From the sequence record OL770074.2: 64,000 nt of DNA; one strand, 5' to 3'. Source of the stretch: Escherichia phage vB_EcoM-RPN187. A program made the position numbers and the translations under genes. Position 1 is the first letter of the stretch. The number at the start of each line of letters is the position of its first letter. Below, piece after piece: positions 1-45,850 of this stretch. Below the pieces are notes generated by a model that was not told the DNA's origin, searched no databases, and saw only the letters and a program-made list of their open reading frames with translations.

Positions 1-397
1 TCGGGTGTTTTGCTTGTGACGGCTCAGGGAACCCATCCGGAGATGTTACTTCGATGTCGAAGTTAGCCACACGAATTTTTGTATGGTCGTATTTGATTTC
101 ATAGTTATAAGTGTCAGACAAATACGCCAATTTGAAATCGTCCATGCCAAGTGCTTCAAGTCCGATATCTTCCATGCGTTTAATCCATTGGGAGGCATCA
201 CGCATATTGGCGAACAACTTACGAGTACACGGCTTACCGTAGATATCGAAATATTTCGTAGCCTGACTTTCTGGACAATGAGCAAACAGTGATGGTTTAT
301 ATTCTACTTCACGAGTACGTTCACGGCCGTTAGAATCGATGTAACGTTCAAAAATTGAATCACCAATCTGTTCAACCGTTAAGTAAAATTCTTTCAT
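1..397 (-). CDS. 43: DNA polymerase gp43, N-terminal fragment (gene runs off the window start)
   Basis: Minus-strand translation from ATG at 395-397 reads MKEFYLTVEQIGDSIFERYIDSNGRERTREVEY...RMEDIGLEALGMDDFKLAY, matching the recalled T4 gp43 N-terminus; frame stays open to position 1. Confidence 0.9.
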   Translation of the reverse strand, partial: MKEFYLTVEQIGDSIFERYIDSNGRERTREVEYKPSLFAHCPESQATKYFDIYGKPCTRKLFANMRDASQWIKRMEDIGLEALGMDDFKLAYLSDTYNYEIKYDHTKIRVANFDIEVTSPDGFPEPSQAKHP

Positions 398-482
398 TTA
401 ATTTCCTTTAGACGAGTTATTGTCTTTTGTTTGTTGATGAACTTATTATACTCCAAATGGGACCGAAGTCCCATTGCTTGCT

Positions 483-3855: not shown

Positions 3856-5544
3856 TTATGAAACAGTCATTACCGTAAATCGTCCAACTTTGCTCATCTG
3901 AAGATGCTGTCCATACCGTTGAGGGTCATGGTCTCGATGAGAGATAATGAACACATTAGTATTTTGTAAACTTCCAAGAATGGTATCTATAGCCTTAACA
4001 GCCTCAGAATCGACAGCGCCATCAAAAACCTCATCAAGAATCAGAGTGTTGATTTTAACACCAGAGACCTTTTCAGCAATATCTCGCCATGTAAACAACA
4101 ATGCGATATCGATACGTGCCTTTTCACCTTGACTAAATGAAGCATAACTAAAATCTTCACGACCACGTGATTTTATAGATTCATTGAATTCTTCGTCAAT
4201 AGAAAACACGTAATCAGCTTCCATGATTTTAAGATAATAGTTAATCTGCTTGTTGAACAGAGGCACATATTTTTTAATGATAGCACCTTTAATACCAGAA
4301 TCTTTTAACATATCTGTGATAATACCACGATGGTATTTTTCAAGAACGATATCCGATTTTGTTTTAATGATTTTATCAAGTTCTTTTTGAAGCAAAGCTA
4401 TCTCATCGGCATGGTCGATAAATTCCGCTGAGGCTTGTTCTATTGCAGCTTTAACTTTCTTAGCTTTATCAATAGTGGCAATCATTGCTTGTTTCTTGGT
4501 ACGAATATCAGATGCAAGGTCCTGTTTAGTCTTAACATTAGCTCTATATTCGTCCACTAGGACACTCAGATTATCTCTGTGACATGTAAGTTGCTCGAAT
4601 GAGTGATTACATTCGTGAAGCTTATCGGTAATCTTAGAGACAATAGGATCACCCTGGTGCAACTGTGATGCACAAGTAGGACATGTGCCGCCGTCATGAT
4701 ACATCTTAATAACTTTGTTATATGAGTCAATTTTAGATTTAATCAAGAATGCTTCTTGTCCTATCTTGTTGAATGCCTCAGTAGGGTCTTCATCAAGAAC
4801 GATATTAAGTAGTCGCTCATTAGCTTCTTCGATTTCTGCTTTTAATGAACGAGCTTCTTTGGCTAGGTCGTCATACATATTCTGTAGACGCGCTACATTA
4901 TCACCAGATAATTTCTTTTGACGTTCGATATTCTCGTTATAAATCTTAATTTGTTGGATAACACCATCTTTCTTGGCATCGAGAACTTGTCCCTGGGAAT
5001 TAAGTTCTCGAACTTGAGACTTATTGATTTTATCCATTTCAGCGAGTGTGCCGACTTCTAAAAGGTCTTCAACAAGTTTTCTGCGAGCAGGGGTGCTAAG
5101 AGCCATGAAAGGGGTATACCCTGCCGTCCCAAGCACAACGATTTGTTTAAAAGACGCGTATGACATTCCGATGCTACGTTCAAATTCTTCTTGGAAGTCA
5201 CGACTGCTGGCAGATTCATCAAGACGAACACCGTCAACGGAGATTTCGAAAATATTGGGCTTTTGGCCACGTTTAATGAAGTATTTTTTACCATCAAATT
5301 CCATCCAAAGCTCAACTAAGAGCTCTTTCTTGTTCGTGCTATTAATGATTTGCCCTTTCTTAACATCACGAAATGGTTTACCGAAAAGTCCAAAAGTAAT
5401 GGCTTCTAACATCGTAGATTTACCACCACCATTTTTACCAGTGATTAATGTCTTTTGGACTTTATCTAATTGGATGTCAATAGGATTCCCGCCTACCGAC
5501 ATGATGTTTTGATAACGAACACGATTTAATTTAAATGATTTCAT
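3856..5544 (-). CDS. 46: recombination endonuclease subunit gp46 (Rad50/SbcC-like)
   Basis: 562 aa, Walker A GKNGGGKST near N-terminus, long coiled-coil middle, CxxC hook (CPTC), C-terminal LILDEVFDG D-loop region. Confidence 0.9.
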   Translation of the reverse strand: MKSFKLNRVRYQNIMSVGGNPIDIQLDKVQKTLITGKNGGGKSTMLEAITFGLFGKPFRDVKKGQIINSTNKKELLVELWMEFDGKKYFIKRGQKPNIFEISVDGVRLDESASSRDFQEEFERSIGMSYASFKQIVVLGTAGYTPFMALSTPARRKLVEDLLEVGTLAEMDKINKSQVRELNSQGQVLDAKKDGVIQQIKIYNENIERQKKLSGDNVARLQNMYDDLAKEARSLKAEIEEANERLLNIVLDEDPTEAFNKIGQEAFLIKSKIDSYNKVIKMYHDGGTCPTCASQLHQGDPIVSKITDKLHECNHSFEQLTCHRDNLSVLVDEYRANVKTKQDLASDIRTKKQAMIATIDKAKKVKAAIEQASAEFIDHADEIALLQKELDKIIKTKSDIVLEKYHRGIITDMLKDSGIKGAIIKKYVPLFNKQINYYLKIMEADYVFSIDEEFNESIKSRGREDFSYASFSQGEKARIDIALLFTWRDIAEKVSGVKINTLILDEVFDGAVDSEAVKAIDTILGSLQNTNVFIISHRDHDPQRYGQHLQMSKVGRFTVMTVS

Positions 5545-5795
5545 ATGTATTCTCTTCGAATGAAGTCCTCTACATATTTTAACATGTCATCTCTATCAGC
5601 AAAATATTCATCTAGTTCTGCATACATAACAACACCCGGTGCGTACTCACAGGTAACATACATTGTTCCAAAGAAACGAGGAGTTGATTCCTCGTAATTC
5701 TCAGTCCATTCAACGACACCAATATAACCGTCACCAATACTAAATTCATGACGTTGGATTTCGTAATCAGTCTTCGTCATTATACGCGTCCTCAA
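5541..5795 (-). CDS. hypothetical protein (84 aa)
   Basis: ORF between 46 and 47, 4-nt overlap with gene 46 start; position of T4 46.1/46.2. Confidence 0.4.
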   Translation of the reverse strand: MRTRIMTKTDYEIQRHEFSIGDGYIGVVEWTENYEESTPRFFGTMYVTCEYAPGVVMYAELDEYFADRDDMLKYVEDFIRREYI

Positions 5796-6024
5796 TACAC
5801 GCTTCAGCCATTTTAAGAATAGAGCCAGGAGTATCGTTGTCCATTATATTAAAGCTAAATTCAATAGCCCAGTCAGTGCAGACATGAACTGCTTTAACTT
5901 CATTGCCTTCAACGCGTAATGGCTCAATCCAATACTTGATAGTGTTCTCGAATCCATCATCATCTTTAACGTCCATTTCAACTTCAAGCCTGAGTCCAGC
6001 ATTGTTAAATTCATCTAAAGTCAT
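5767..6024 (-). CDS. hypothetical protein (85 aa)
   Basis: ORF between 46 and 47, overlaps gene 47 stop; position of T4 46.1/46.2. Confidence 0.4.
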   Translation of the reverse strand: MTLDEFNNAGLRLEVEMDVKDDDGFENTIKYWIEPLRVEGNEVKAVHVCTDWAIEFSFNIMDNDTPGSILKMAEACIEDAYNDED

Positions 6025-7040
6025 TGTGTTGCCTCAATATAAAGTTCGTTGGAATATTTGACCAGCGCTTCTCTGTCTTCGTCTGAGATATCTGGAATCG
6101 CGTCAATATATTCTTTAATGATATCTTGAAGTGATTTAATCTCGATTTCCTGGTCGTCATCAGATTCAACACTGTTATCAACTTTAGAAACCATACGAAG
6201 AGAGTGAACTACTTTTTCAAGTTCAGATTCAAACTTAGTCAACTCTGAATCAATTTCTGATACTATAACACGTACGGCTAGATTAGTATAATCAGAATAA
6301 TTGATTTTGCCTTTAAACGGATAAGTGATTCGTCGATGCCATGTTGTTTCATTAGGAATAAATTCCATACGTTCAACATCGGTGTCAAATACCCAGAATC
6401 CTCGAGGGTCGTTTTCATCACCTGCAGTAAGGGTCCATGGTGTCCCAATATATTTGACGTTAGCAGCTTCAGAGATTGTGTGGAAGTGGCCGGACCAGAC
6501 TTGTTTATAGGTCTTTAAAAAATCAGGTTCAAGCCCATGAGACTTCATTCCTTTATAGAAATAAAAACCATTCAGTTCCCAGTGCCCAACACAATACGCG
6601 GCAGAAGAAGTCTTGATGTGCTCTAAGATTTCACCAGTATTTTCTTCGCACATCCAAGGAATTAAATCAATCAAACATCCGTCAAAATCTACTGTAGTAG
6701 GCTTATCATATACTTTAACATTAGGATATTTAGCTAAAAGCTCAGTAGAAGCGTTTGGAGTTAAAGTATTTTTAAAGTGCATATCATGGTTTCCTACAAC
6801 AGTATGTAGGGTAATACCAGCCTCATCAAGCATTTGAACTATTTCACGTGCGAACTCCATAGTTTTATGCGTGATTGCTTTTCGCACATCAAAAATATCG
6901 CCGTATTGAATCCATGTAGTAATTCCATTTTTCTTAGAATATTCTATCGCCTGCTTAATTCCATCCAACTGAATGGATTGAACCCACTCATCATCGGCTT
7001 TAACACCTAAATGCCAATCACCTAAATTTAAAATTTTCAT
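6021..7040 (-). CDS. 47: recombination endonuclease subunit gp47 (Mre11/SbcD-like)
   Basis: 339 aa; calcineurin-like phosphoesterase motifs (LGDWHLG, GDIFD, GNHD, GHWE, GHFH). Confidence 0.9.
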   Translation of the reverse strand: MKILNLGDWHLGVKADDEWVQSIQLDGIKQAIEYSKKNGITTWIQYGDIFDVRKAITHKTMEFAREIVQMLDEAGITLHTVVGNHDMHFKNTLTPNASTELLAKYPNVKVYDKPTTVDFDGCLIDLIPWMCEENTGEILEHIKTSSAAYCVGHWELNGFYFYKGMKSHGLEPDFLKTYKQVWSGHFHTISEAANVKYIGTPWTLTAGDENDPRGFWVFDTDVERMEFIPNETTWHRRITYPFKGKINYSDYTNLAVRVIVSEIDSELTKFESELEKVVHSLRMVSKVDNSVESDDDQEIEIKSLQDIIKEYIDAIPDISDEDREALVKYSNELYIEATQ

Positions 7041-7083
7041 ATTATTTCCTCATTAGTTAATTCATTCTATCATCCGTTTATAA

Positions 7084-7118
7084 AGCAAAAAAAAAAGGAA
7101 CTCCGAAGAGTTCCTATC
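7084..7118 (-). terminator. rho-independent terminator (GGAACTC-ttcg-GAGTTCC plus U-run)
   Basis: Minus strand reads GGAACTCTTCGGAGTTCC followed by TTTTTTTTTT; overlaps the stop of the 57-aa ORF and lies upstream of gene 47. Confidence 0.6.
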
Positions 7119-7287
7119 CACATAGTACACCGTACAGAGGCTCATTTGAACTTTTAAATCGAATGGGCTTGTATGTAATAGTTCCTTCGGCTTTAGCTTT
7201 ATCATAAGACTCTTTAAAACGTCTCATTCTTTCTGCTTTGCCTTTACGGATTTTATCGAAATTTTCAGAAGTCGGGATGTTCGTCAT
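7114..7287 (-). CDS. hypothetical small protein (57 aa, below the track cutoff)
   Basis: ATG at 7285-7287; MTNIPTSENFDKIRKGKAERMRRFKESYDKAKAEGTITYKPIRFKSSNEPLYGVLCG; stop inside the terminator hairpin. Confidence 0.3.
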   Translation of the reverse strand: MTNIPTSENFDKIRKGKAERMRRFKESYDKAKAEGTITYKPIRFKSSNEPLYGVLCG

Positions 7288-7326
7288 GCATAAGCACCTC
7301 TCAGAAAATGCCTAAATCGATTTCTC

Positions 7327-7548
7327 TCATCGTTTCCACCATTTCTTAACTTGAAATGAATCAACCCACACGAGTTGTTTTGGGTCTGCCTTTACAATAG
7401 GCGGACAAATTTCTGTAATAGAACCGTCGTGATATTCCTTTTCAGAGATTTTAACGCAAAGAGGACCTCCCAATTTAAGGGTGAACCCTGCGTTCAGCTT
7501 CAGACGTTTAAACTTTGTTTGAACTAGCGCCATTAATGATGTCCTCAA
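7327..7548 (-). CDS. hypothetical protein (73 aa)
   Basis: ORF on coding strand in the 47-55 spacer; start uncertain, overlaps next ORF. Confidence 0.3.
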   Translation of the reverse strand: MRTSLMALVQTKFKRLKLNAGFTLKLGGPLCVKISEKEYHDGSITEICPPIVKADPKQLVWVDSFQVKKWWKR

Positions 7549-7831
7549 TAGCCTGACGAGTAGTAACCCACTGGATTTTAATTAACTTGTCGTTATATGG
7601 TTGTCGTAGAATATCCCGAGATTTCTTAATAGCATATTCGTAAGCTTCGAAGTTGTTTTGAATTGCTGCTTCTTGAGCATGAGCATAAAGACGGTTTAGT
7701 TCAAAACGATTCTTTTTAAGAATCTTTTCGGATTTTTTACGTGCTTCAGCTTCATTTTTCTTTTGGATTTCTTGTAGCATTTTAGCTACTGCATCTTCTG
7801 CTTCTTTATTTTCAATAATCTCGGTAGTCAT
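7508..7831 (-). CDS. hypothetical protein (107 aa)
   Basis: ORF on coding strand in the 47-55 spacer. Confidence 0.4.
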   Translation of the reverse strand: MTTEIIENKEAEDAVAKMLQEIQKKNEAEARKKSEKILKKNRFELNRLYAHAQEAAIQNNFEAYEYAIKKSRDILRQPYNDKLIKIQWVTTRQAIEDIINGASSNKV

Positions 7832-7832
7832 A

Positions 7833-8126
7833 TTATCTCATTAAATTAAAATAAAAACGTCCATCCTCTTCAATACAGAACTCATACTCAACCGGAGTCC
7901 CATTTATCGAAAATGACACGTCATGTGGGTTCAAAGGGTCGATGTCAAAATTAATTTTAAATTCACGACCCAACAGTTTTACCAAATAAGGGATTGCTTC
8001 GTCAAAAGGTTCTTCTAAGTAGTTAGAGATGTCAATTGTCATCCTCATATAAAAAATCCAAACTAGGCGAATCGCTAACAACTTCCTTCTTTTCAGCCCC
8101 AGGAGCTTTATAAGCGGATTCTTCAT
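7833..8126 (-). CDS. hypothetical protein (start probably internal, about 70 aa)
   Basis: Track ORF overlaps the gp55 C-terminus; internal Met near 8042 gives a short overlap. Confidence 0.35.
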
Positions 8127-8589
8127 AATGCGTCATTTTATCGTAGATGTCTTGAATAAACGTTTCATCTACCAACGCTACCATATCATCGTCATGACTG
8201 TCGTAGACGTTATGAACGAAGTAACTATATTTCTTTGCAACTTCCTTACGTTCTTTTTTGATACGTTGGACAAAAGCATTAAAACAAGCTCGAGTTATGT
8301 ATGCATGTGGGTTATTGTACTTAGTTTCGTCGAAATTATGAAGTCCCTTAATAGAGGCTTCAATCCCATCTGCAATCATCTCCTGCTTCCAAGACTGGGT
8401 ATATCCTGAAAAGTTGAAACGTTTGGACAGGCCTTCAGCGATAAGCATAATTGCTAAACCGATGGTATCATTCTGACGAATAATTTTGTTTGGGTCTTTA
8501 TTATTTAAGAGCTCCTTTTTCCACTCGATTATAGCGGCGAGAAGCTCTTTATTATTCACATAGTTATTTTTAGGTTTTTGTTCAGTCAT
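8032..8589 (-). CDS. 55: late-transcription sigma factor gp55
   Basis: 185 aa; [24 protein letters not shown]...[53 protein letters not shown], close to recalled T4 gp55. Confidence 0.9.
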
Positions 8590-8599
8590 AAGTACCTCT

Positions 8600-8656
8600 T
8601 AGCTCAATTCATAGGTCTATTATATCATAATATTTAGAGACCTATCTTAAAGCACG
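8600..8656 (-). promoter_or_regulatory. promoter region upstream of gene 55 (MotA-box-like TGCTTTA plus TAAATA, inside palindrome TAGGTCT...AGACCTA)
   Basis: Minus strand: gTGCTTTAagataggtctcTAAATAttatgaTATAATagacctatg. Confidence 0.4.
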
Positions 8657-8661
8657 AGATA

Positions 8662-8931
8662 CTATCGGAGCAAACAATAAGCCTGAAACACTTTTTCCAT
8701 TAAACGTTTGAACTCATGGATATCGATATAAAGCTCAGTAAGACCGGCATTATAAAGAAAATCTAAAAAGTTCTCATGTGTTTCGTTATAGTCGCCTTCG
8801 TTTAATTGAGATACATGAGTTTCCCAAAAACCAACACCTTTAACGAATGGAAAATACGTGACTTTCATGTATTCGTCAACATAAAATTCGCCCAGCTTTT
8901 CTTCAGTTATACTGATTCGAGTTAATTTCAT
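8662..8931 (-). CDS. hypothetical protein (89 aa)
   Basis: Coding-strand ORF, 4-nt overlap with the next ORF. Confidence 0.4.
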   Translation of the reverse strand: MKLTRISITEEKLGEFYVDEYMKVTYFPFVKGVGFWETHVSQLNEGDYNETHENFLDFLYNAGLTELYIDIHEFKRLMEKVFQAYCLLR

Positions 8932-9155
8932 TCTAGTTCCTTTGCTGCTTCAAGAGCATCATCCAACGAATCAAATTGGTCAACGAAATCGATATTCAAC
9001 GCATCGTCAGCCGTAGCATATAGCCACCATTGTTTGAATTCATATTCTAGGATAAATCCAAGCCCTTCAATCTGAGAAAGACCTAGGCTATTTGTACCAA
9101 CTTCGTAACCAGCTAGACGCAGGTCATTAATCAAAGATTCTGTTAATACGCTCAT
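8928..9155 (-). CDS. hypothetical protein (75 aa), acidic
   Basis: Coding-strand ORF with ATGA-type overlaps at both ends. Confidence 0.4.
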   Translation of the reverse strand: MSVLTESLINDLRLAGYEVGTNSLGLSQIEGLGFILEYEFKQWWLYATADDALNIDFVDQFDSLDDALEAAKELE

Positions 9156-9484
9156 TTTACCGCCTTAACAATTTTCAGGTCAACGAATTTTTTCTTACGT
9201 TGATTTTTCATACGACGGATAGTCTTTTCAGAGATTTCATGTTTCTGATAAGCTTTAGATTCAACACCAAATGCAGCAACGTCAAATTCAGAAAGAATAT
9301 ATTGTACTAGAATTTCACGAATAGAATTACGTCCAATTTTCTGGTCGTGTTTTTGCATGATTTCATAAAGACGGAATTCCCATGCGTCAAGGACTTGAGG
9401 AGTAACAATATTGCCGGATTCCAGAAGAGCAACAACTTTATCGAAAGCGAAAGAATTAACTACGTTTTTGATTTTAGTAGACAT
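9152..9484 (-). CDS. hypothetical protein (110 aa)
   Basis: ATG at 9482-9484 preceded by CCGAGGAAAATAAT; the track ORF extends upstream through a non-ATG codon. Confidence 0.45.
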   Translation of the reverse strand: MSTKIKNVVNSFAFDKVVALLESGNIVTPQVLDAWEFRLYEIMQKHDQKIGRNSIREILVQYILSEFDVAAFGVESKAYQKHEISEKTIRRMKNQRKKKFVDLKIVKAVK

Positions 9485-11087: not shown

Positions 11088-11411
11088 TCAATCTTCTATG
11101 ATATCAGAGTCATATCCTAATGAAATCAAGGACTTTTTAAACTCTGCAATATTCTTTTGTTTCTTATCATTTAAAAATATGACAGGATAACGAATATTAA
11201 GTGAAGTGAATCCTGCACGTTTAGCAAGAGATACGATTAAAGGACGGTCATATTCAATCTTACCATTATTAGTGAGGACTTTATAAAATGTATAAGGAGC
11301 ATTGAGCTCCTTTAAAAGTTTTGTAACAGTATAACATCCCGGACAACGTCCTACTTCTTCAGGGATGCCATAAATTTCAATCTTGTTCTTTAAGTTCGAG
11401 TTTTGTTCCAC
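11088..11411 (-). CDS. nrdH: NrdH-like glutaredoxin (CPGC redox motif)
   Basis: KIEIYGIPEEVGRCPGCY... thioredoxin-fold CxxC; sits upstream of nrdG/nrdD as in T4. No in-frame ATG; GTG at 11409-11411 with AAGGA upstream is proposed as the start. Confidence 0.5.
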   Translation of the reverse strand: MEQNSNLKNKIEIYGIPEEVGRCPGCYTVTKLLKELNAPYTFYKVLTNNGKIEYDRPLIVSLAKRAGFTSLNIRYPVIFLNDKKQKNIAEFKKSLISLGYDSDIIED

Positions 11412-11694
11412 GAGAAATAATTCCTTGGTAAGCCCAATAAGGAGGATTAACAGAATCCTCACCAGAGTTTTCTTCAGGAAAATAAACCTGGATAACAAAT
11501 CCAGATTCATCAAAGGTAAAATAAACTGTAGGTAATTCACCTAACAATTCAGCACGATTATTAATTTCTTCGAGTTCTCGTTCACATCCAGCCCAAAAAC
11601 TAGGATTTAAACTACATTCGTAAAAATAATAGTCATTACCGAACATATCAAAACCATTCCAACTCTCAACCACATACCGCTCAAAACTAATCAT
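11377..11694 (-). CDS. hypothetical protein (105 aa)
   Basis: Coding-strand ORF whose stop overlaps the nrdH-like start region. Confidence 0.4.
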   Translation of the reverse strand: MISFERYVVESWNGFDMFGNDYYFYECSLNPSFWAGCERELEEINNRAELLGELPTVYFTFDESGFVIQVYFPEENSGEDSVNPPYWAYQGIISRGTKLELKEQD

Positions 11695-11696
11695 AA

Positions 11697-11912
11697 TTAA
11701 GCCTTTTTATCAAGAACAGAATTCAGTTTATTAGTAATTTTGTCCAAACGTTCATTGAATTCGCTGGAGGATAAACCCTTTTCCGGAGAAATTAAACTAA
11801 TCACGAAAAATACAACAGTAAAAGGAATAAGAAAAATAGCTCCAACTGCCATAAACAAAAAGAACGTTACAGTTGTAAGAAAATCAGCTAAACCTTTACG
11901 AAATTTATACAT
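11697..11912 (-). CDS. hypothetical membrane protein (71 aa)
   Basis: One strong hydrophobic helix (FLFMAVGAIFLIPFTVVFFVISLI). Confidence 0.4.
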   Translation of the reverse strand: MYKFRKGLADFLTTVTFFLFMAVGAIFLIPFTVVFFVISLISPEKGLSSSEFNERLDKITNKLNSVLDKKA

Positions 11913-14312: not shown

Positions 14313-14782
14313 TTTAAACTCTTTCTAAGCTGCTTTTTGAATGAAGCTATTAATTGTGTTTTAGTATCAGATTCATTATATTCAAATCCTCTTTGAAGCA
14401 TCTCAGCCATCATTTCCTCTTTACCTAGTCTTGAGAACTCTTTAGTTTTGTCTGGAACAAAATTAGGATGGATATTATTATCAGAATAATCTTGTTTCAA
14501 ATAAGCGAGAAGAGCTTCAAGCCATTCGAGGTAGTCGACATCACGTCCTTTAAGACCGGAACGGTTGAACTTATGCTTCATTTGACCTTCTGCTGCGTTG
14601 CACAGATTACAGAGTAATCCACGAACTCTACCGGCTTTTGGCCCGTTTAATTCATGGTCGTGGTCAAGATGGTTACCTTGAACATCAGGGTCTAATTCAC
14701 GGTGGCAAATAGGACACTTACCGTTCTGTGCATCATAAAATTTTTGTTTTTCTTCTTTATATTTTGCGCCTGATAATAACAT
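14309..14782 (-). CDS. 49: endonuclease VII (Holliday-junction resolvase) gp49
   Basis: 157 aa; MLLSGAKYKEEKQKFYDAQNGKCPICHRELDPDVQGNHLDHDHELNGPKAG... near-identical to recalled T4 EndoVII. Confidence 0.9.
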   Translation of the reverse strand: MLLSGAKYKEEKQKFYDAQNGKCPICHRELDPDVQGNHLDHDHELNGPKAGRVRGLLCNLCNAAEGQMKHKFNRSGLKGRDVDYLEWLEALLAYLKQDYSDNNIHPNFVPDKTKEFSRLGKEEMMAEMLQRGFEYNESDTKTQLIASFKKQLRKSLK

Positions 14783-14817: not shown

Positions 14818-15243
14818 TTAACTTAAACGTCTTTCTAAATATTCAATGTATTCTGCGGCTGCTTGCATCAGGTTACCTTCATAGCCGTCGTTATTTTCTT
14901 GTCCAGCTAATTTAGCTAATGCATAAGAAATTCGTTCACCTTCGAATTCACCAAGTTTACTACCTAGCACATCCGCAATATCAGCCGAATCAATTTCTTC
15001 GAGTTCATCTATTGAATGGGATTCCCAGAAGCACCAAAGAGAAGTATCACGGTCATAGATGCAAAGTTTCTCACCTGTGTTCAACATCACTTCGATAATG
15101 CCATGGCCGCCATAACCATCTTCGGTAGTAGTACCAATTACCTTGATGATTGTTCCTTTCTTTAATTCAGGAAACTTGTCTTGTAGTTCTTCATCTTCTT
15201 TAACAATCTTGAACCATTTACCGCGAGTTTCAGAAATATTCAT
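14818..15243 (-). CDS. hypothetical acidic protein (141 aa)
   Basis: Coding-strand ORF in the 49-nrdC spacer (T4 pin/49.x position). Confidence 0.45.
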   Translation of the reverse strand: MNISETRGKWFKIVKEDEELQDKFPELKKGTIIKVIGTTTEDGYGGHGIIEVMLNTGEKLCIYDRDTSLWCFWESHSIDELEEIDSADIADVLGSKLGEFEGERISYALAKLAGQENNDGYEGNLMQAAAEYIEYLERRLS

Positions 15244-15543
15244 ATCAATATCCTCTATAAAAGTTGCGATGCGTGCGTTTCGCTTTGCGAAGCTGACGTT
15301 TAGTTGGTCGAACCGTAAATGGTCGTCCGGAGAAAAAATTTGGTTCGGTTTTAATCAACACATACCAATCGTGTTCGCCACTTTTTAATAAACGGTACAA
15401 TAATTTAACTTGCATAATAATCTCTTCCCATTTCCAAATCAATCATATCGTTTACTGTAGGTTCATCATAACACGTTTCTTCGTCGTTGTAAACTGTTTC
15501 GACGTCCGGCTCGACAGTTTCCCATCGAGCCGAATACCATGGT

Positions 15544-21921: not shown

Positions 21922-21950
21922 ATAATAACATGTTTAAAGCAAAAGTAAAC
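21922..21950 (-). promoter_or_regulatory. early promoter GTTTAC-N17-TATTAT
   Basis: Minus strand: TGTTTACTTTTGCTTTAAACATGTTATTATAGACC. Confidence 0.5.
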
Positions 21951-21952
21951 AA

Positions 21953-22171
21953 TTATTTGCGACGAGATTTTTTGGTAAGAGGTTGAAAGAACACTGCTTT
22001 ACCTGCTGGGGTTAAGGTGACTCGTAACGCATTACCGATTCCCAAGGATGCTTTAACTAGACCTTTAGCTTTCAGTTCACCGAATGCTTGACGTTGGTCT
22101 GCATCACGAGTGTTAACCATAAGACCTTTATCACCAGCTTCACGAATCATTTCTAACATTTTGGTTTTCAT
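21953..22171 (-). CDS. hypothetical small basic protein (72 aa)
   Basis: ATG at 22169-22171 preceded by GAGGAGAA; MKTKMLEMIREAGDKGL... Confidence 0.4.
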   Translation of the reverse strand: MKTKMLEMIREAGDKGLMVNTRDADQRQAFGELKAKGLVKASLGIGNALRVTLTPAGKAVFFQPLTKKSRRK

Positions 22172-24594: not shown

Positions 24595-24774
24595 TTATTC
24601 ACCAATTAAAGTTTCAACAAAATTCACCAAAGCATTCTGACAAGCATCAACCTGATTTTCATAAAAGCCTACATTATCATTTACCGCATGATAAGCTACA
24701 TCATTCAAATCTGAATCAGCTTCGCGCAAGTCACGAATAAGGTCCATCAATTTATTAGCTTGTTCACGGGTCAT
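24595..24774 (-). CDS. hypothetical small protein (59 aa, below the track cutoff)
   Basis: MTREQANKLMDLIRDLREADSDLNDVAYHAVNDNVGFYENQVDACQNALVNFVETLIGE; its stop TAA abuts the next ATG. Confidence 0.25.
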   Translation of the reverse strand: MTREQANKLMDLIRDLREADSDLNDVAYHAVNDNVGFYENQVDACQNALVNFVETLIGE

Positions 24775-24909
24775 TTTACCATACTCGTTTCAATAAGATT
24801 CACTATGCCGTTTACCATGTTATAAGTAAACATCGGATAATTGTATTGTACTACAACATAAGCGATAAGCAAAAGTTTCATTTTGTTCTCCATTTGTTTT
24901 GGTAGGACT

Positions 24910-24939
24910 ACTATAACATAGTCCTACCAAGACGTAAAC
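24910..24939 (-). promoter_or_regulatory. early promoter GTTTAC-N17-TTATAGT with hairpin GGTAGGAC/GTCCTACC
   Basis: Minus strand: GTTTACGTCTTGGTAGGACTATGTTATAGTAGTCCTACC. Confidence 0.5.
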
Positions 24940-25229
24940 TACCGATTATGTTTTAAAATACTATAAAGAGCTTCTACTTGGCTTGCATCCAGGTAAATAA
25001 CATCATCATCTTGCTCAATGGAAATTCCGCCAGTATTACCTTCAACGAAATTACATTCGCATACTTCAACGGTGCGATATACATCACCAACTGGATGCCC
25101 AGGCTCCAGAACAATCACACCATCTTCAGAACAACCGCTTGGGTCATATAACATTACAGTTTCCTCGCTAACCATGAAAAGAATAAACCAATTAAAACAG
25201 GTCCTACAGCCATTGTTAACCAAGCCCAA
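24939..25229 (-). CDS. hypothetical small protein (71-96 aa depending on start)
   Basis: Two candidate starts, both with an SD; C-terminal part MLYDPSGCSEDGVIVLEPGHP is paralogous to the next ORF. Confidence 0.35.
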   Translation of the reverse strand: MGLVNNGCRTCFNWFILFMVSEETVMLYDPSGCSEDGVIVLEPGHPVGDVYRTVEVCECNFVEGNTGGISIEQDDDVIYLDASQVEALYSILKHNR

Positions 25230-25245
25230 GGTTCAAGATAATAAA

Positions 25246-25410
25246 TCATCTCATGCTCCTGTGCCAACAGTTTCTTGGTTCACGTTTAAAAATTTCATCA
25301 TGCATTGATTGACAACCAACACAATATATCACCACCATATCATCTTCAGCGCTTTCAGGTAAAAGTTCAAGTACACCGTCTTCAGATTTTCCAGTATAAT
25401 CGTAAAGCAT
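25246..25410 (-). CDS. hypothetical small protein (54 aa), paralogue of the previous ORF
   Basis: MLYDYTGKSEDGVLELLPE... shares the N-terminal motif with 24939-25154. Confidence 0.35.
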   Translation of the reverse strand: MLYDYTGKSEDGVLELLPESAEDDMVVIYCVGCQSMHDEIFKREPRNCWHRSMR

Positions 25411-25417
25411 AATATCC

Positions 25418-25597
25418 TCACATAATCTCGTTAACATACATTTGCAATTCGGTGTGGGCTTCGGCCATCTTTTTCATAGCTCTGTTAATGTCGATGTCTC
25501 CATCTTCGCAACCATGAGCATTTTCCCAATCAGATACAGCATTAGCGTACTCTTCAATCAAAAACATTAACTTAGAAATTTTTTCTTTACGTGACAT
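25418..25597 (-). CDS. hypothetical small protein (59 aa)
   Basis: ATG preceded by GAGGAGAA; MSRKEKISKLMFLIEEYANAV... Confidence 0.35.
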   Translation of the reverse strand: MSRKEKISKLMFLIEEYANAVSDWENAHGCEDGDIDINRAMKKMAEAHTELQMYVNEIM

Positions 25598-25624
25598 AAC
25601 GTTCTCCTCTAGTAAGTAAAGACT

Positions 25625-25653
25625 ACTATAACACAACCTGAGGAGAAGTAAAC
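25625..25653 (-). promoter_or_regulatory. early promoter GTTTAC-N17-TATAGT
   Basis: Minus strand: GTTTACTTCTCCTCAGGTTGTGTTATAGTAGTC. Confidence 0.5.
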
Positions 25654-25663
25654 TGCTAAATGC

Positions 25664-25692
25664 AAAAAAGCCCCAACCGTAAGGAAGGGGCT
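25664..25692 (-). terminator. rho-independent terminator (GCCCC...GGGGC plus U6), copy 1
   Basis: Minus strand: GCCCCTTCCTTACGGTTGGGGCTTTTTT just after the rI stop; same element at 41024-41052, variant at 41570-41598. Confidence 0.6.
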
Positions 25693-25698
25693 AGTAAA

Positions 25699-26001
25699 TT
25701 AGATAGATGTAGGCTCTAATTTTATTTTCATGAACTCGGCAAATTGTCTGGCAGTTTTTATGCCTTGTTCATGACATTCAAATGCATCATCACAGGGGCT
25801 ATTTTTGTAATGCTTTACCATATACTTATAGAATTTTTCAGAATTCTCAACATTTTGAATTTCAAACAAAGTATATACGTTTTTAATCCCTGATTCCATA
25901 AAGTTATCAAAATATGGGTCGGTATACGCAGTACCAACGTTAGGAGTTGTTGCTGCAAAAAACCCCAGCATCGCCATTACAGCTATCGCTCTTAAGGCCA
26001 T
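25699..26001 (-). CDS. rI: lysis-inhibition antiholin RI
   Basis: Signal-anchor N-terminus then DPYFDNFMESGIKNVYTLFE...FYKYM...YKNSPC...FEC..., matching the pattern of recalled T4 RI; next to tk as in T4. Confidence 0.7.
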   Translation of the reverse strand: MALRAIAVMAMLGFFAATTPNVGTAYTDPYFDNFMESGIKNVYTLFEIQNVENSEKFYKYMVKHYKNSPCDDAFECHEQGIKTARQFAEFMKIKLEPTSI

Positions 26002-27439: not shown

Positions 27440-27933
27440 AATAATGGTTCCCAATCAACAATCACAATTTCTAGTTTAGTGGAATACGTATCTAAAATCT
27501 CTTCGATGACATCCCAGTTTCCACCACCGATACCTGCACCAATTCTTGGCATGTAAATTACAGGCTTTGTTATCTTATTCTTTCCGAATTCATTTAATTC
27601 TATTATACAATTCATTAAAGCAAAGTACTCAAAATTAGGTCCAGGCTCAAACTGCGTATAAAGATTAAAGCAATAAGCTTTATGTGTCTTAAAATATTTT
27701 TCATAAACTGAATAAGTCCCGAGTTTAGACTCGTCTCCGAATTCAGTTTGAAGTTTATCGGCTTCTAGAATTTTTGGATAAGCCTTTGCTAATTGTCCTG
27801 CCACACCAGCGCCCATTGTATGAAAACAATTACACCCATGAGCAATATTATTACCTTTAGAAAACAGGGCGACAATATCGCCCTTGATATAGTTTTTAAT
27901 CACTTGCTGCAAGTCCTCTAGTATAAGAGTCAA
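27436..27933 (-). CDS. macrodomain-like protein (165 aa)
   Basis: NIAHGCNCFHTMGAGVAGQL and PRIGAGIGGG resemble the two glycine-rich ADP-ribose-binding loops of macrodomains; size fits a single macro fold. Confidence 0.5.
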   Translation of the reverse strand: MTLILEDLQQVIKNYIKGDIVALFSKGNNIAHGCNCFHTMGAGVAGQLAKAYPKILEADKLQTEFGDESKLGTYSVYEKYFKTHKAYCFNLYTQFEPGPNFEYFALMNCIIELNEFGKNKITKPVIYMPRIGAGIGGGNWDVIEEILDTYSTKLEIVIVDWEPLL

Positions 27934-29311: not shown

Positions 29312-29527
29312 TTATTGATAAAATGGAGTTAAAGCCCAAGATTCTTTAGATACCATATCGGCGAAATGCCTCATCTCTTCGATTTGGCGACGACGCTGGT
29401 CAGCATAGTCTTCTTCGCCTTCTTCCTTACAATCTTCAAGGTCTTCTTCAAGATACTTTAAGTATTCACTACAAATTTTGTTGACCTTTTCTTGAAAGTC
29501 CAATAACCCAGTAATAGTAGAAGCCAT
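29312..29527 (-). CDS. hypothetical acidic protein (71 aa)
   Basis: Coding-strand ORF upstream of regB. Confidence 0.35.
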   Translation of the reverse strand: MASTITGLLDFQEKVNKICSEYLKYLEEDLEDCKEEGEEDYADQRRRQIEEMRHFADMVSKESWALTPFYQ

Positions 29528-29793
29528 TAGTATTTTTCCTCAGGTCGAAATACTGCACGACATGCCCACATGCTGGCTTCTTTTAGATGTTGCTTAGCAT
29601 ACTTAAGAGCCTGCACTGCATCCATATCTTCTTTGGTTTGTTGCTCTGATTCATTTTCTTTCAAGATATATGCTTCTTCAATCAGAGCATCAAACATCAA
29701 TCCAAGACGGACTTCTGCATCTTTAATAGCGTTCACTTTACTGATTTTATCATCGGTATGCGGCTTGTAGCCTTTGATGTCTTCAATCGACAT
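29527..29793 (-). CDS. hypothetical protein (about 88 aa)
   Basis: Internal ATG with GAGGAAA SD (MSIEDIKGYKPH...); the track ORF is longer. Confidence 0.35.
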   Translation of the reverse strand: MSIEDIKGYKPHTDDKISKVNAIKDAEVRLGLMFDALIEEAYILKENESEQQTKEDMDAVQALKYAKQHLKEASMWACRAVFRPEEKY

Positions 29794-30007
29794 AAGGAAT
29801 TTCCTCATCGGTGGCAAGGTCATATTCGACCAATTGGATAGGCTCATTAATACCATATCCGCGTACAGTGATATCGGTTGACGGATATTTTCCAGTAATA
29901 TCACCAATTCTAAATGATTCAATGAATGATTGCTCGCCTGAGCAACTAAACCAGGCGGCAAAACATTTTAAAACATCTTCAGACCCTTCTATAATCAATT
30001 TAGCCAT
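29783..30007 (-). CDS. hypothetical protein (74 aa)
   Basis: Coding-strand ORF; its stop overlaps the next start. Confidence 0.35.
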   Translation of the reverse strand: MAKLIIEGSEDVLKCFAAWFSCSGEQSFIESFRIGDITGKYPSTDITVRGYGINEPIQLVEYDLATDEEIPYVD

Positions 30008-30369
30008 TATAGGCTCTCAGTAAAGGTACGAGCGATAACGTCGCGCTGCTGTTCCGGAGTCAGAGAGTTAAAGCGAACTGCATAACCGGATACACGGATG
30101 GTCAGCTGCGGATATTTTTCCGGATGCTTAACTGCATCTTCCAGAGTTTCACGACGCAGAACGTTAACGTTCAGGTGTTGACCACCTTCAATTTTAACTT
30201 TAGGTTGATGTTCAATTTCAATTTCACGGGCATTCAAACCGTAGAAAATTTCTGGGTCTACAATAGCGTCTTCTTTAAAAGTCTTAGAGACAATAATCCG
30301 GGCTTGAGCACCGTCTTCAAAATAAATAGTGCCTTTATGTACACCTTCAAGAATTTGATATGCTTTCAT
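30007..30369 (-). CDS. grcA: autonomous glycyl-radical cofactor (GrcA/YfiD-like; T4 Y06I family)
   Basis: C-terminal [59 protein letters not shown] with glycyl-radical motif RVSGY; 3' half of the gene is markedly GC-richer than the surrounding phage DNA. Confidence 0.8.
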
Positions 30370-30375
30370 ATAACC

Positions 30376-30684
30376 TCAATTAGAAAATAAATTTATCCAA
30401 GATTTTTCTTTAATCAAAAATGGGTCGGAATTAAACGCCATTAAACTTTGGGTGATTAATCCCTTAAATGGTCCATCAATAAATTCCATTTTGAAATGTG
30501 GAATACTAGTCATCAACCGTGCATTAGGAGCAGTACAAAGAACCTGCTGACCTGCGAACGGACCTTTAGTCAAACGATATCGTTTAGGTTTAAAATGGTA
30601 AATCTCGTAATTTTCTACAAGAGCCCTTTTATTGCATACTGGGCTGTTATAACAATACTCAAAAACTTCAATAGTGGTCATCAT
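30376..30684 (-). CDS. hypothetical protein (about 102 aa)
   Basis: Coding-strand ORF; internal start MMTTIEVFEY gives an ATGA-type junction. Confidence 0.35.
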   Translation of the reverse strand: MMTTIEVFEYCYNSPVCNKRALVENYEIYHFKPKRYRLTKGPFAGQQVLCTAPNARLMTSIPHFKMEFIDGPFKGLITQSLMAFNSDPFLIKEKSWINLFSN

Positions 30685-31220
30685 TGCATTCCAATCACAA
30701 AAAATTGAGGACGAGCAATACCGCCGATGCAATATTTGCTTTTGCAGCAGTGCTGTATTGCTTTAATATGGACATTGTAAATCTTATCCATATCAGGAGC
30801 TTTAATAGGCTCGTCAATTATATACAGAATACGAGAAAGCGTTAATCCACGGAATTTAGAACCTTCATTACCAATAAAACTACGGACAGAATCAGTAAAT
30901 AAACGGAATCGAATATCATCGCTAGAATAACGTGAAAATTCTTTTTTAATGTTGCCAGCAGAAATTTTAGCATAAGCTGAAGTATTAGAAAGAACAATAA
31001 CTGTTCCACCATCGAGCAGCCAATTAGCGGCAAAATTAGTTACTGCGGTAGATTTACCAGATTGTCTGCCACCGTCTAAACGAAGTGTACAGTACTGCTT
31101 GAGTACGTCTTCAAATGGTGGGGCACAACCGTTCTTACAAATTTCTTCTACTCTAGCATCAGAATGGTGTGTAAAAGCATTCATCAGGGATAGATAAGGT
31201 CCAGTTAAAAATGTTCTCAT
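30681..31220 (-). CDS. small P-loop protein (about 179 aa)
   Basis: Walker A GGRQSGKST; Walker B-like ILYIIDE. Confidence 0.45.
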   Translation of the reverse strand: MRTFLTGPYLSLMNAFTHHSDARVEEICKNGCAPPFEDVLKQYCTLRLDGGRQSGKSTAVTNFAANWLLDGGTVIVLSNTSAYAKISAGNIKKEFSRYSSDDIRFRLFTDSVRSFIGNEGSKFRGLTLSRILYIIDEPIKAPDMDKIYNVHIKAIQHCCKSKYCIGGIARPQFFVIGMQ

Positions 31221-31466
31221 ATTATTTCTCTTAAGGTTTGGGCCATTCCATGGCACATGTTAGGTCCTTCGATTCGCTATGTAAACCCATTACCGCACTT
31301 GGGCTCGACCTTATTACAGGTTGGCGGGAATCCCTCATAGAATCATGAGGTCCAGGTTGTTCCCATGTTATTTGAATGTAAATATTTTTGCCGTAATACT
31401 TATACCAGTGTGGCTTCGTTAAAATTTTTTCATCGAGTCATTTTACCTCTCCAAGTAATTATGAAT

Positions 31467-31496
31467 ATACTATCACAATTTTAGGAGAAAGTAAAC
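31467..31496 (-). promoter_or_regulatory. early promoter GTTTAC-N18-TAGTAT
   Basis: Minus strand: GTTTACTTTCTCCTAAAATTGTGATAGTAT; followed by about 180 nt without an ORF. Confidence 0.45.
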
Positions 31497-31498
31497 TG

Positions 31499-31801
31499 TT
31501 ATTTACCTTTAATTACTTTAGCTGCTTCGATAGCCGCTTGCTGAAGGTCATCCATCGACATACCGAATTTAGAAGCAAAGTTATCAATTTTCTTTTCGAC
31601 AGCATTCAAAGGCTTGGCCTGTTTACCTTCATTAGCGCCAGGAAGAGCGAGAATACGCTCTTTGTCAATATAAAGGCTTACAAGTTTCTTACGGTCTTTA
31701 TCGGACAAATCATGAAATGAATGGGCCTTTTTATTTATAGCGGCTTCTAATTTACCTGCACTCACTCGCGCTTCAGTAATAAATTCTTGATATGTTTTCA
31801 T
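31499..31801 (-). CDS. ipII: internal protein II (capsid-targeted, injected)
   Basis: 100 aa; capsid-targeting leader MKTYQEFITE then ARVSAGKLEAAINKK...; recalled T4 internal-protein family. ipII versus ipIII naming rests on length. Confidence 0.7.
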   Translation of the reverse strand: MKTYQEFITEARVSAGKLEAAINKKAHSFHDLSDKDRKKLVSLYIDKERILALPGANEGKQAKPLNAVEKKIDNFASKFGMSMDDLQQAAIEAAKVIKGK

Positions 31802-31842
31802 ATGTTTCCTTTAAATGTAAATAGGCCTAAATATAGGCCTTA

Positions 31843-37259: not shown

Positions 37260-37286
37260 TGTGGACTCCATTTAATTTGATAGGAC

Positions 37287-37316
37287 TACTATAACATAGC
37301 CCTATCTTGTTGTAAA
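37287..37316 (-). promoter_or_regulatory. early promoter GTTTAC-N17-TTATAGT with hairpin
   Basis: Minus strand: GTTTACAACAAGATAGGGCTATGTTATAGTAGTCCTATC. Confidence 0.55.
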
Positions 37317-45115: not shown

Positions 45116-45850
45116 TTACCTTAAGATTGTTTCAATTTTAGAATAAAGCTCTTCTAAAGAGCCGTCGTTTGTAATAACTAAATCGCCTTCTTCAATAGGC
45201 AACCCAGCTTCTGTAATATGTTTATCAGTGGATTCCGTACCAGAGCGAACCACATGAATAACTGTAGCACCCATCGCTCTAGCGGTTTCCATTTCATGGA
45301 CTTGACGTGTATCGGTTACAACATAGTAATCGAAATCACTTCCAATATAATCCATATAGTTTAATGCAAAAAGTTTAACCCAATACATACGGTCAAATAA
45401 ATTAACGACAATATCCGTACCGAGGGCTTGCATAAGACGGCGGATTGACCATGTGTCGTTGATATTATTTATAGCTTCACGCAGGGCTTCATACGGTTTA
45501 ACATCTAGATATGAATACCCACCTTCTAATGATGATAATACTTTAACATTATTAATTGGTAAATATTGACTTTGTAAATAAATTAGCGTTTCTTCCATTA
45601 ATTCAATAACATCCAACTTATTGATATTTAATGGTGTTTCACGGTCGTATCCAACACCTTCAAAGTATTCATATTTCAACTCAGTGAATACATCAGGGTT
45701 TTCGGCATGTTTACGTCCCCAGGCTATTGCTAGAGCGTCTTTAATCGGATATGCCAATTGGTATTTTACGGATTTAAAGTTTGAATTGATGTAATCAGCA
45801 GTAGTGTCTTTACCACTACGTTTGATGCCGCTTAAAAAGATTAGCTCCAT
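45116..45850 (-). CDS. 1: dNMP kinase gp1
   Basis: 244 aa; P-loop-like LSGIKRSGKDTTADY at the N-terminus; T4 synteny. Confidence 0.9.
   Translation of the reverse strand: MELIFLSGIKRSGKDTTADYINSNFKSVKYQLAYPIKDALAIAWGRKHAENPDVFTELKYEYFEGVGYDRETPLNINKLDVIELMEETLIYLQSQYLPINNVKVLSSLEGGYSYLDVKPYEALREAINNINDTWSIRRLMQALGTDIVVNLFDRMYWVKLFALNYMDYIGSDFDYYVVTDTRQVHEMETARAMGATVIHVVRSGTESTDKHITEAGLPIEEGDLVITNDGSLEELYSKIETILR

Follow-up and report, generated by a model that had tools for sequence, protein, structure and literature searches.

The interval between genes 47 and 55 of bacteriophage T4 contains 47.1, a-gt (400 aa), mobB and a-gt.2 to a-gt.5. A sequence-only reading of a 64,000-nucleotide stretch of Escherichia phage vB_EcoM-RPN187 (OL770074.2; this whole stretch is called the window below), which was right in giving the T4 locus an a-gt of about 400 aa, reported that the corresponding interval holds no such gene. 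This raises the question of whether the phage has lost its alpha-glucosyltransferase or never depended on one, and of how its cytosines are modified. We find that the absence of a-gt is real but ordinary, and already known for RB69-type phages. We consider it very probable that the interval is the complete and normal Mosigvirus version of the locus rather than a T4 locus minus a gene, and that the phage carries arabinosylated 5-hydroxycytosine made by enzymes encoded outside the window.

Layout of the interval between genes 47 and 55

Positions 7041-8031 run exactly from the ATG of gene 47 (7040, minus strand) to the stop codon of gene 55 (8032), and contain four small ORFs, all on the minus strand, and one terminator, with nothing else (Table 1). 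The longest ORF in any frame is 107 aa and tblastn with T4 a-gt was null, which bears out the reported absence of the gene. The small ORFs of 57, 73, 107 and about 70 aa that had been described were all located, and the terminator was seen as a hairpin followed by a T9 run. Each of the four ORFs has its orthologue among T4 a-gt.2 to a-gt.5, and the layout is the norm for the genus; the T4-framed view of the locus therefore stands as to the missing a-gt and falls as to any depletion. The locus looks depleted because it is framed by T4.

Table 1. Features of the 47–55 interval and of the cytosine-modification pathway in the window (positions are those of the window)
Feature	Position	Strand	Basis
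Gene 43 (DNA polymerase), 5' part, first ~132 codons, runs off left edge	1..397	-	ATG at 397-395, MKEFYLTVEQ
Gene 47 (SbcD-like recombination nuclease subunit)	6021..7040	-	phrog_100, E = 5.8e-141
Shine-Dalgarno GAGGAAA for gene 47	7045..7051	-	read from sequence
Predicted MotA-dependent middle promoter of gene 47	7064..7090	-	matches TGCTTYA-N11-13-TANNNT
Predicted intrinsic terminator: 8-bp stem, UUCG loop, T9 run	7087..7115	-	hairpin in both MFE and centroid structures
a-gt.2 orthologue, 57 aa, DUF5486	7114..7287	-	76% identity to T4 a-gt.2; phrog_2140; PF17588
a-gt.3 orthologue, 68 aa from ATG at 7533	7327..7533	-	71% identity to T4 a-gt.3; phrog_1648
a-gt.4 orthologue, 107 aa, DUF2654	7508..7831	-	58% identity to T4 a-gt.4; phrog_951; PF10849
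a-gt.5 orthologue, 69 aa, DUF5491	7833..8042	-	45% identity to T4 a-gt.5; phrog_1169; PF17595
Gene 55 (late sigma factor)	8032..8589	-	phrog_234, E = 3.7e-68
Gene 1 (dNMP kinase)	45116..45850	-	phrog_139; 95% identity to RB69p159

Starting at the TTG at 7548 would lengthen the a-gt.3 orthologue to 73 aa; the annotation of Mosigvirus ST0 uses the 207-bp version that begins at the ATG. At its start the a-gt.5 orthologue shares 11 nt with the 3' end of gene 55, and its mechanical ORF extends to 8126, within gene 55. As names, a-gt.2 to a-gt.5 reflect position and nothing more, and no link to glucosylation is to be read from them; a literature search on the function of these genes turned up nothing useful.

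A terminator with a UUCG hairpin, a middle promoter of MotA type and a ribosome-binding site together take up the whole 73-bp gap upstream of gene 47. The terminator (7115..7087, minus strand) reads AGGAACTC-TTCG-GAGTTCCT followed by nine T, which is the G+C-containing hairpin and U-run of an intrinsic terminator; it shares bases with the stop codon of a-gt.2 and lies directly next to the MotA box. This box, TTTTGCTTTA at 7090-7081, is separated by an 11-nt spacer from a -10 element, TAGAAT, at 7069-7064. Box, spacing and -10 element all agree with the published consensus, in which (a/t)(a/t)(a/t)TGCTTtA lies 12 +/- 1 bp upstream of TAnnnT (PMC2988021). The pattern TGCTTYA-N11-13-TANNNT occurs 9 times in the window, where 1.67 matches would be expected. 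Genes for a MotA-like activator and for an anti-sigma factor are present in ST0, and the predicted promoter is the positional homologue of T4 P47, whose start is mapped at T4 position 36576. From this sequence evidence both the terminator and the promoter are probably functional. Transcription on the minus strand passes gene 55, the a-gt.5, a-gt.4, a-gt.3 and a-gt.2 orthologues, the terminator, the MotA-type middle promoter and then genes 47 and 46; the terminator would end the upstream unit and the middle promoter would restart transcription into genes 47 and 46.

Compared with the window, T4 has only 47.1, a-gt and mobB as extras (2.2 kb in all, together with a second hairpin-plus-middle-promoter cassette), none of which is detectable in the window. 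In T4, mobB and a-gt lie between the two cassettes. Both loci have 47 and 55 at their borders, the four small genes inside them, and a cassette upstream of 47.

The window is 95–99% identical to the Mosigvirus genomes JS09, ST0 and AV117. Over positions 5500-9200 (3.7 kb) nucleotide identity was 99.0% to JQD51 and 98.9% to ST0 (Mosigvirus JS09), and over 25 kb it was 96–97% to genomes of the Mosigvirus JS09 group, with 97.4% the highest among phage records. ST0 aligns to 95% of the window at a mean identity of 96.7%, and the contig that matched best by exact proteins (L016) is 95.7% identical to the window. A 60-mer taken from the window edge had no exact match in IMG/VR, in the JGI metagenomes or among the related loci compared, the nearest of which differ from it by one mismatch. 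Additionally, gp47 is a JS09-type allele, with 99.7% amino-acid identity to JS09 gp47, about 89% to that of most other Mosigviruses and 85.5% to T4 gp47. These alignments place the window in an RB69/JS09-type phage of the genus Mosigvirus.

Gene order in the relatives follows the same pattern. The series 55, a-gt.5, a-gt.4, a-gt.3, a-gt.2 and 47, without a-gt, mobB or 47.1, is the same in the window, ST0 and RB69. From 47 to 55, RB69 (RB69p066-p071, NC_004928 38972-41536) has gene order and sizes identical to those of the window (a-gt.2 174 bp, a-gt.3 207 bp, a-gt.4 324 bp, a-gt.5 210 bp, so named since its genome record); the two phages, of one genus, differ here by sequence divergence only, with a gap before 47 of 69 bp in the RB69 record versus 73 bp in the window. 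We also sampled related contigs that encode the window's exact gp62 or gp44, and the a-gt-less interval was present in all of them (12/12).

Cytosine modification and the search for a glycosyltransferase

Mosigviruses appear to swap cytosine for 5-hydroxycytosine bearing one or two arabinoses. Mono- and di-arabinosyl 5-hydroxycytosine have been reported in the DNA of RB69 (Lee et al. 2026, PMC13326640) and of the Mosigvirus NicPhage (PMC13390438), and RB69 gp48 makes 5-hydroxy-dCMP. The phage would not need a-gt, because the genus Mosigvirus does not make glucosyl-hmC. The sequence-only reading had reasoned that if the phage modifies its hydroxymethylcytosine, the enzyme must be elsewhere or different. 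It appears to be both, and the hydroxymethylcytosine premise is probably wrong, since Mosigviruses make arabinosylated 5-hydroxycytosine (PMC13326640, PMC13390438).

Between gene 43 and uvsX, relatives of this phage carry the 5-hydroxy-dCMP synthase, genes for UDP-arabinose synthesis and arabinosyltransferase 1; in line with the RB69/DLP3 pathway (PMC13326640; PMC6024577), they also encode a SIS isomerase, an NTP-transferase/kinase, a phosphatase and a U32-like protein. The complete genome of ST0 has gene 43 at 29402-32113, the start of the arabinose cluster at 32154, and the two arabinosyltransferase genes at 37252-38148 (arabinosyltransferase 1) and 59016-60113 (arabinosyltransferase 2). Its proteins are close to those of RB69 (99% for the gp48 homologue, the ThyA-homologous 5-hydroxy-dCMP synthase; 98-99% for gp47 and gp46, the counterpart of arabinosyltransferase 1; 98% for gp3, the second arabinosyltransferase). 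Arabinosyltransferase 1 occurs in 348 phage records, with at least 95% identity in 153 of these, the closest relatives of the window included. The assignment of the arabinosyltransferases is a qualified one, resting on published structure predictions, synteny and partial biochemistry in which the first arabinosylation step is not reconstituted (PMC13326640).

The left edge of the window cuts gene 43. By homology with ST0, the arabinose cluster would start about 2.4 kb past this edge and arabinosyltransferase 1 would lie about 7.5 kb past it, with arabinosyltransferase 2, which sits between rIIA and gene 39 in relatives, about 29 kb past it. The only listed component of the cytosine-modification pathway within the window is gene 1, whose RB69 counterpart, RB69p159, is the dNMP kinase of that pathway (PMC13326640 Table 1). 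Given relatives that are 95–99% identical, this phage's own genome probably contains the arabinose cluster and, by analogy with them, its DNA is probably arabinosylated.

Searches of the window are consistent with enzymes encoded outside it. With T4 a-gt, T4 b-gt and both Mosigvirus arabinosyltransferases as tblastn queries against all 64 kb, the best E was 0.49 (0.53 for a-gt, AGT, PF11440; 1.9 for b-gt, PF09198). Pfam and PHROG scans found no glycosyltransferase family in the larger unassigned ORFs of the window; as a control, T4 a-gt scored 862 bits on PF11440. We rejected a hidden glycosyltransferase among the ORFs of the nrdC.3,.5,.6,.10 and.11, RB69 ORF132c/ORF134c, e.5 and e.6 types, among which neither Pfam nor PHROGs found one. 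Pfam is blind to the kind of glycosyltransferase expected here, because both Mosigvirus arabinosyltransferases are themselves without a Pfam match, and for this reason the window was also searched directly with their sequences. The earlier failure to recognize any glycosyltransferase-like ORF in the window is thus upheld by tblastn, Pfam and PHROG alike.

The isolate might nevertheless have lost the arabinose cluster, or carry a different and undescribed cytosine modification, despite its Mosigvirus-like window. Variation of this chemistry is documented, with mono-, di- and tri-arabinosyl variants among relatives (PMC13326640), but two observations argue against such a change: window positions 1-400, with the 5' part of gene 43, are 99% identical to ST0 29798-29399, and the cluster lies directly downstream of gene 43 in 12/12 of the related contigs, where SIS, NTP-transferase, U32, ThyA, 299-aa glycosyltransferase and 182-aa genes are followed by uvsX. 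We regard this alternative as improbable.

We consider it highly unlikely that this is a glucosyl-hmC phage with its alpha- or beta-glucosyltransferase relocated to a place outside the window. That explanation draws on the size of the window, 64 kb of roughly 169 kb, and on the mosaic nature of T4-type genomes, 5% of the window being without an ST0 counterpart. Against it, the complete genome of ST0, the closest RefSeq relative, contains neither enzyme (no tblastn match at E <= 1 for either; best phmmer --max E 0.82 for a-gt and best phmmer E 2.2 for b-gt), so that the canonical a-gt elsewhere in the genome, which had been named as the finding that would overturn the reading, did not appear there. 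BlastP likewise found no glucosyltransferase in RB69 (Thomas et al. 2018, PMC6024577). A spread listing of the 657 a-gt-bearing records comprised Tequatrovirus-type and Klebsiella-phage (Jiaodavirus-type) entries, with no identified Mosigvirus among the matches listed, and in 12/12 of the contigs sharing gp62 or gp44 the arabinose cluster sits where T4 has gene 42 and b-gt.

We give as little credence to a recent deletion of a-gt, which would make the isolate a T4-like phage whose sugar modification is reduced or missing. Modules do come and go between genera at the junction of a-gt.2 and 47, but here tblastn and inspection of the junction sequence found no degraded a-gt, 47.1 or mobB remnant, and all 73 bp are accounted for. 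The same junction occurs in RB69, ST0 and the 12 related contigs, and the window is 95–99% identical to Mosigviruses while its gp47 shares only 85.5% with T4. The chance that one or more of the four small ORFs performs sugar transfer, as their historical names and their place next to a-gt in T4 could suggest, is negligible: at 57–107 aa they are much too small for any glycosyltransferase fold, the Pfam families they match are DUFs, and they are kept whatever the chemistry (T4, a Jiaodavirus, a Dhakavirus, a Karamvirus and Mosigviruses), so that size and conservation in phages with a-gt rule them out.

Cassettes at the junction of a-gt.2 and 47

The preferred reading, a normal Mosigvirus locus, leaves room for a proposal about how a-gt comes to be present in some genera. 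In JS98, a Karamvirus, Mineola and T4, as in the window, 47 or 47.1 has a hairpin, MotA box and -10 element upstream of it. Among the genomes compared, only those with a-gt, T4 and Mineola, have a second copy of this cassette, located after a-gt.2; in T4 the two copies correspond to the mapped promoters P47 and PmobB. The Dhakavirus JS98 resembles the window in lacking a-gt and in carrying one hairpin-plus-MotA cassette after a-gt.2 to a-gt.5, with a spacer nearly that of the window (CGGATGATA(A/G)AAT). Unlike the window, JS98 retains 47.1 between the cassette and 47.

These elements recall PeSLs, the mobile regulatory cassettes of T4-type phages that were defined with early promoters (Arbiol 2010, PMC2839356; Comeau 2014, PMC4122927). 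Both are composites of a stem-loop terminator and a promoter bordering modules that vary between related genomes; here, two cassettes flank a-gt in T4 and Mineola, and one is found where a-gt is absent. The difference lies in the promoter, as the cassette described here has a MotA box replacing the -35 element and is of the middle class, not an early promoter.

We regard a-gt as an accessory module. In T4 and the Klebsiella Jiaodaviruses it occupies the junction of a-gt.2 and 47 between two cassettes of the same type; the window has a single cassette and no a-gt module. Recombination between cassettes could account for the presence or absence of a-gt. A wider proposal, which we offer tentatively and think possible rather than probable, is that this junction is a conserved docking site for DNA-modification modules and that the hairpin-plus-MotA cassette is the middle-promoter counterpart of the PeSL, with two copies bordering a-gt in Tequatroviruses and Jiaodaviruses and one copy in Mosig-, Dhaka- and Karamviruses. 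The shared hairpin and GCTTTATA core might then be the site of homologous recombination that inserts or excises a-gt as a self-expressing unit, helping lineages to switch chemistry.

Implications for RB69-type phages

That RB69-type phages lack a-gt, b-gt and ba-gt has been in print since 2018, and papers on the replacement chemistry and its genes appeared in 2025-2026. The view of a-gt as a module between two hairpin-plus-middle-promoter cassettes is the one modest extra that our analysis offers beyond these known facts. It is also evident that an expectation centred on T4 can make a difference that is normal at genus level look like an anomaly. Our reading predicts arabinosylated 5-hydroxycytosine in the DNA of this phage. 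That modification decides how sensitive the DNA is to attack by restriction enzymes, CRISPR and type IV enzymes such as BrxU/GmrSD; for NicPhage DNA, cleavage in vitro by BrxU, a type IV enzyme of the GmrSD family, is reported. Such sensitivity is relevant to phage therapy and to phage engineering.

Four small genes between 47 and 55

The stretch at 7041-8031, exactly the space from the start of gene 47 to the stop of gene 55, carries orthologues of T4 a-gt.2 to a-gt.5 (table below). The sequence-only reading had described a terminator, four small ORFs, the largest of 107 aa, and no a-gt, and this is accurate because no ORF in any frame of the interval exceeds 107 aa. T4 has the order 47, 47.1, a-gt, mobB, a-gt.2, a-gt.3, a-gt.4, a-gt.5, 55; thus, the four small genes are common to T4 and the window. 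T4 differs by 47.1, a-gt and the homing endonuclease gene mobB (~2.2 kb together), and no trace of any of the three was found in the window.

Genes in and around the 47-55 interval (window coordinates)
Feature	Coordinates	Strand	Product	Identity to T4	Family or basis
gene 43	ATG at 397, continues past left window edge	-			alignment to ST0
gene 46	3856-5544	-			
gene 47	6021-7040	-			
a-gt.2 orthologue	7114-7287	-	57 aa	76%	DUF5486
a-gt.3 orthologue	7327-7533	-	68 aa (73 aa from upstream TTG)	71%	phrog_1648, no Pfam family
a-gt.4 orthologue	7508-7831	-	107 aa	58%	DUF2654
a-gt.5 orthologue	7833-8042	-	69 aa	45%	DUF5491
gene 55	8032-8589	-			

Over window positions 5500-9200, identity reaches 99.0% with phage JQD51 and 98.9% with ST0, a phage assigned to Mosigvirus JS09; over positions 1-25000, AV117, JS09 and related records share 96-97% identity with the window. 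Overall, 95% of the window aligns to the assembled ST0 genome at a mean identity of 96.7%. The 47-55 layout of RB69, the type Mosigvirus, is identical to that of the window, and its record already calls the four ORFs a-gt.2 to a-gt.5.

The window's gp47 allele is rare (only 17 phage records at 95% protein identity or more; JS09 99.7%), with ~88.5-89% identity to other Mosigviruses such as NicPhage and 85.5% to T4, suggesting mosaic exchange within the genus. Segments without an ST0 counterpart, every one <600 bp (14819-15255, 21942-22154, 29312-29521, 31268-31441, 31808-32392, 40132-40674, 40999-41561 and 43701-44015), include the gene for an internal virion protein of 192 aa (phrog_5341, at 31843-32421) alongside small genes whose function is unknown (phrog_2280, phrog_6869), and are typical of hyperplastic-region mosaicism. 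A minus-strand tRNA cluster at 41908-42735 has 10 genes (Arg, Asn, Tyr, Met, Thr, Ser, Pro, Gly, Leu, Gln). The RB69 annotation lists just the Arg and Met genes, two tRNAs are reported for Mosigvirus NicPhage (PMC13390438), and ST0 is homologous to window 41907-43700 (~95% identity), yet has no tRNA annotation there. Homing-endonuclease-type insertions around gene 46 also differ among relatives, and none of those seen there is present in the window. In ST0, the space between 46 and 45.2 contains a MobB-like HNH remnant that is not annotated (25554-25919; ~11355-11720 of our ST0 locus L013) and has 43.5% identity to T4 MobB aa 1-129, and two metagenome contigs (L018, L020 6818-7534) carry an ORF of 238 aa on the opposite strand at this position; in another contig (L021 5027-5887) a 286-aa ORF replaces 46.1.

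A predicted regulatory cassette in front of gene 47

The 73-bp gap before gene 47 begins, on the minus strand, with the TAG stop of a-gt.2. Overlapping this stop is a hairpin, AGGAACTC-TTCG-GAGTTCCT, followed by nine T, by prediction a canonical intrinsic terminator. TTTTGCTTTA begins inside the end of the T-run and precedes an 11-nt spacer and TAGAAT; GAGGAAA and the gene 47 ATG close the gap. The arrangement TTTTGCTTTA-N11-TAGAAT is a predicted promoter that conforms to the T4 rule for middle promoters, in which a MotA box, (a/t)(a/t)(a/t)TGCTTtA, lies 12 +/- 1 bp upstream of the -10 element (PMC2988021). The pattern TGCTTYA-N11-13-TANNNT has 9 matches in the window versus 1.67 expected. Box and -10 matches were seen at 4370-4394, 14375-14400, 27597-27622 and 42805-42829 (-), among others, and one within gene 46 recalls the internal T4 promoters P46i (PMC2988021). 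The T4 homologue of the gap sequence lies ahead of 47.1 and 47 and is P47, experimentally mapped with its start at T4 36576, and the T4 sequence after a-gt.2 is PmobB (also Pa-gt.1), mapped with its start at 38682 (PMC2988021).

We compared the a-gt.2 to 47 junction in five genera, defining the cassette as a short G+C hairpin (UUCG loop; UUAG in JS98), (T)GCT(T/A)T... within a few bases, a spacer and a TAnAAT -10. Reading from 55, the window and RB69 (Mosigvirus) have a-gt.5 to a-gt.2, cassette, 47, and JS98 (Dhakavirus) has the same genes and cassette, then 47.1 and 47. In vB_VIPECLUMC02 (Karamvirus) the order is 55, a-gt.5, a-gt.4, a-gt.3, an unrelated small ORF, cassette, 47. Two cassettes flank a-gt in Mineola (Jiaodavirus: 55, a-gt.5 to a-gt.2, cassette, a-gt, cassette, 47) and mobB with a-gt in T4 (Tequatrovirus: 55, a-gt.5 to a-gt.2, cassette, mobB, a-gt, cassette, 47.1, 47). 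The left side of the window cassette (a-gt.2 end and hairpin) resembles the upstream T4 copy, and its spacer (CGGA...) resembles the P47 copy. This arrangement is that expected if a-gt were a module recombining via duplicated cassettes; a-gt would then travel as a self-expressing unit, entering or leaving through recombination within the duplicated regulatory cassette. The cassette is similar to PeSL elements, the mobile stem-loop and promoter units of T4-type phages (PMC2839356, PMC4122927), but has a middle promoter where PeSLs have an early one.

Arabinosyltransferases and the modified base

In agreement with the sequence-only reading, neither a-gt nor any other glycosyltransferase was recognisable in the 64-kb window: the best tblastn E was 0.49 when T4 a-gt, T4 b-gt and both Mosigvirus arabinosyltransferases served as queries, and no glycosyltransferase family turned up when the larger unassigned ORFs were scanned against Pfam and PHROGs. 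A 329-aa TTG-initiated ORF (39938-40927, +) overlaps two minus-strand genes, matched nothing in Pfam or PHROGs and is unlikely to be a gene. The complete ST0 genome (170,496 bp, assembled from five pieces) has no tblastn match to a-gt or b-gt at E <= 1 (best phmmer --max E 0.82 and 2.2, respectively) and carries both arabinosyltransferases. Arabinosyltransferase 1 occurs in 348 phage-collection records, 153 at 95% identity or more (including AV117, TU01, EP02SG and ST0). T4 a-gt occurs in 657, and the matches listed are Tequatrovirus-type genomes with 90-100% identity and Klebsiella-phage (Jiaodavirus-type) genomes with ~66%.

Window position 1 corresponds to ST0 29798, within gene 43. Directly after this gene, up to uvsX, ST0 and RB69 encode in order an arabinose-5-phosphate isomerase (SIS domain), a 561-aa nucleotidyltransferase/kinase, a 128-aa phosphatase-like protein, a U32-family protein, a thymidylate-synthase (ThyA) homologue, a 299-aa protein and a thymidylate-kinase-like protein. 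By ST0 homology, the cluster would start ~2.4 kb, and the 299-aa gene lie ~7.5 kb, outside the left window edge. ST0 proteins are 99% identical to RB69 gp48, 98-99% to gp47 plus gp46 taken as one ORF (the 299-aa protein) and 98% to gp3, encoded between rIIA and gene 39; the ThyA homologue has only 25% identity to T4 gp42. RB69p046 and RB69p047 (24597-25497 of the RB69 locus L004) align end to end with the ST0 299-aa ORF (aa 184-299 and 1-181), which supports the published statement that their split is a sequencing or annotation artefact in the RB69 record. All 12 public-assembly contigs with the window's exact gp62 or gp44 combine an a-gt-less 47-55 interval with the cluster downstream of gene 43, and a direct check, made on one of them, showed arabinosyltransferase 1 at 98.7% identity. 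The suggestion that a modifying enzyme must be elsewhere or different was probably right on both counts; the relatives' arabinosyltransferases are encoded outside the window span.

No a-gt, b-gt or ba-gt homologue was found in RB69; arabinose was detected in its DNA, and ORF003c was proposed as the transferase (Thomas et al. 2018, PMC6024577). Its DNA contains mono- and di-arabinosylated 5-hydroxycytosine, with the sugar ether-linked straight to C5 without a hydroxymethyl group; gp48 produces 5-hydroxy-dCMP, and gp46:47 (arabinosyltransferase 1) and gp3 (arabinosyltransferase 2) are assigned as the two transferases, with the first transfer step still awaiting reconstitution (Lee et al. 2026, PMC13326640). 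Both nucleosides also occur, at a ratio of 1:4, in Mosigvirus NicPhage, and its two transferase genes lie at the positions found in ST0 (Durham Collection paper, PMC13390438). The a-gt-less locus is the documented norm for RB69-type phages. Because the published chemistry of RB69 and NicPhage is arabinosylated 5-hydroxycytosine, the premise that this phage modifies hydroxymethylcytosine is probably wrong for the genus, and the base modified in RB69-type phages is probably a different one.
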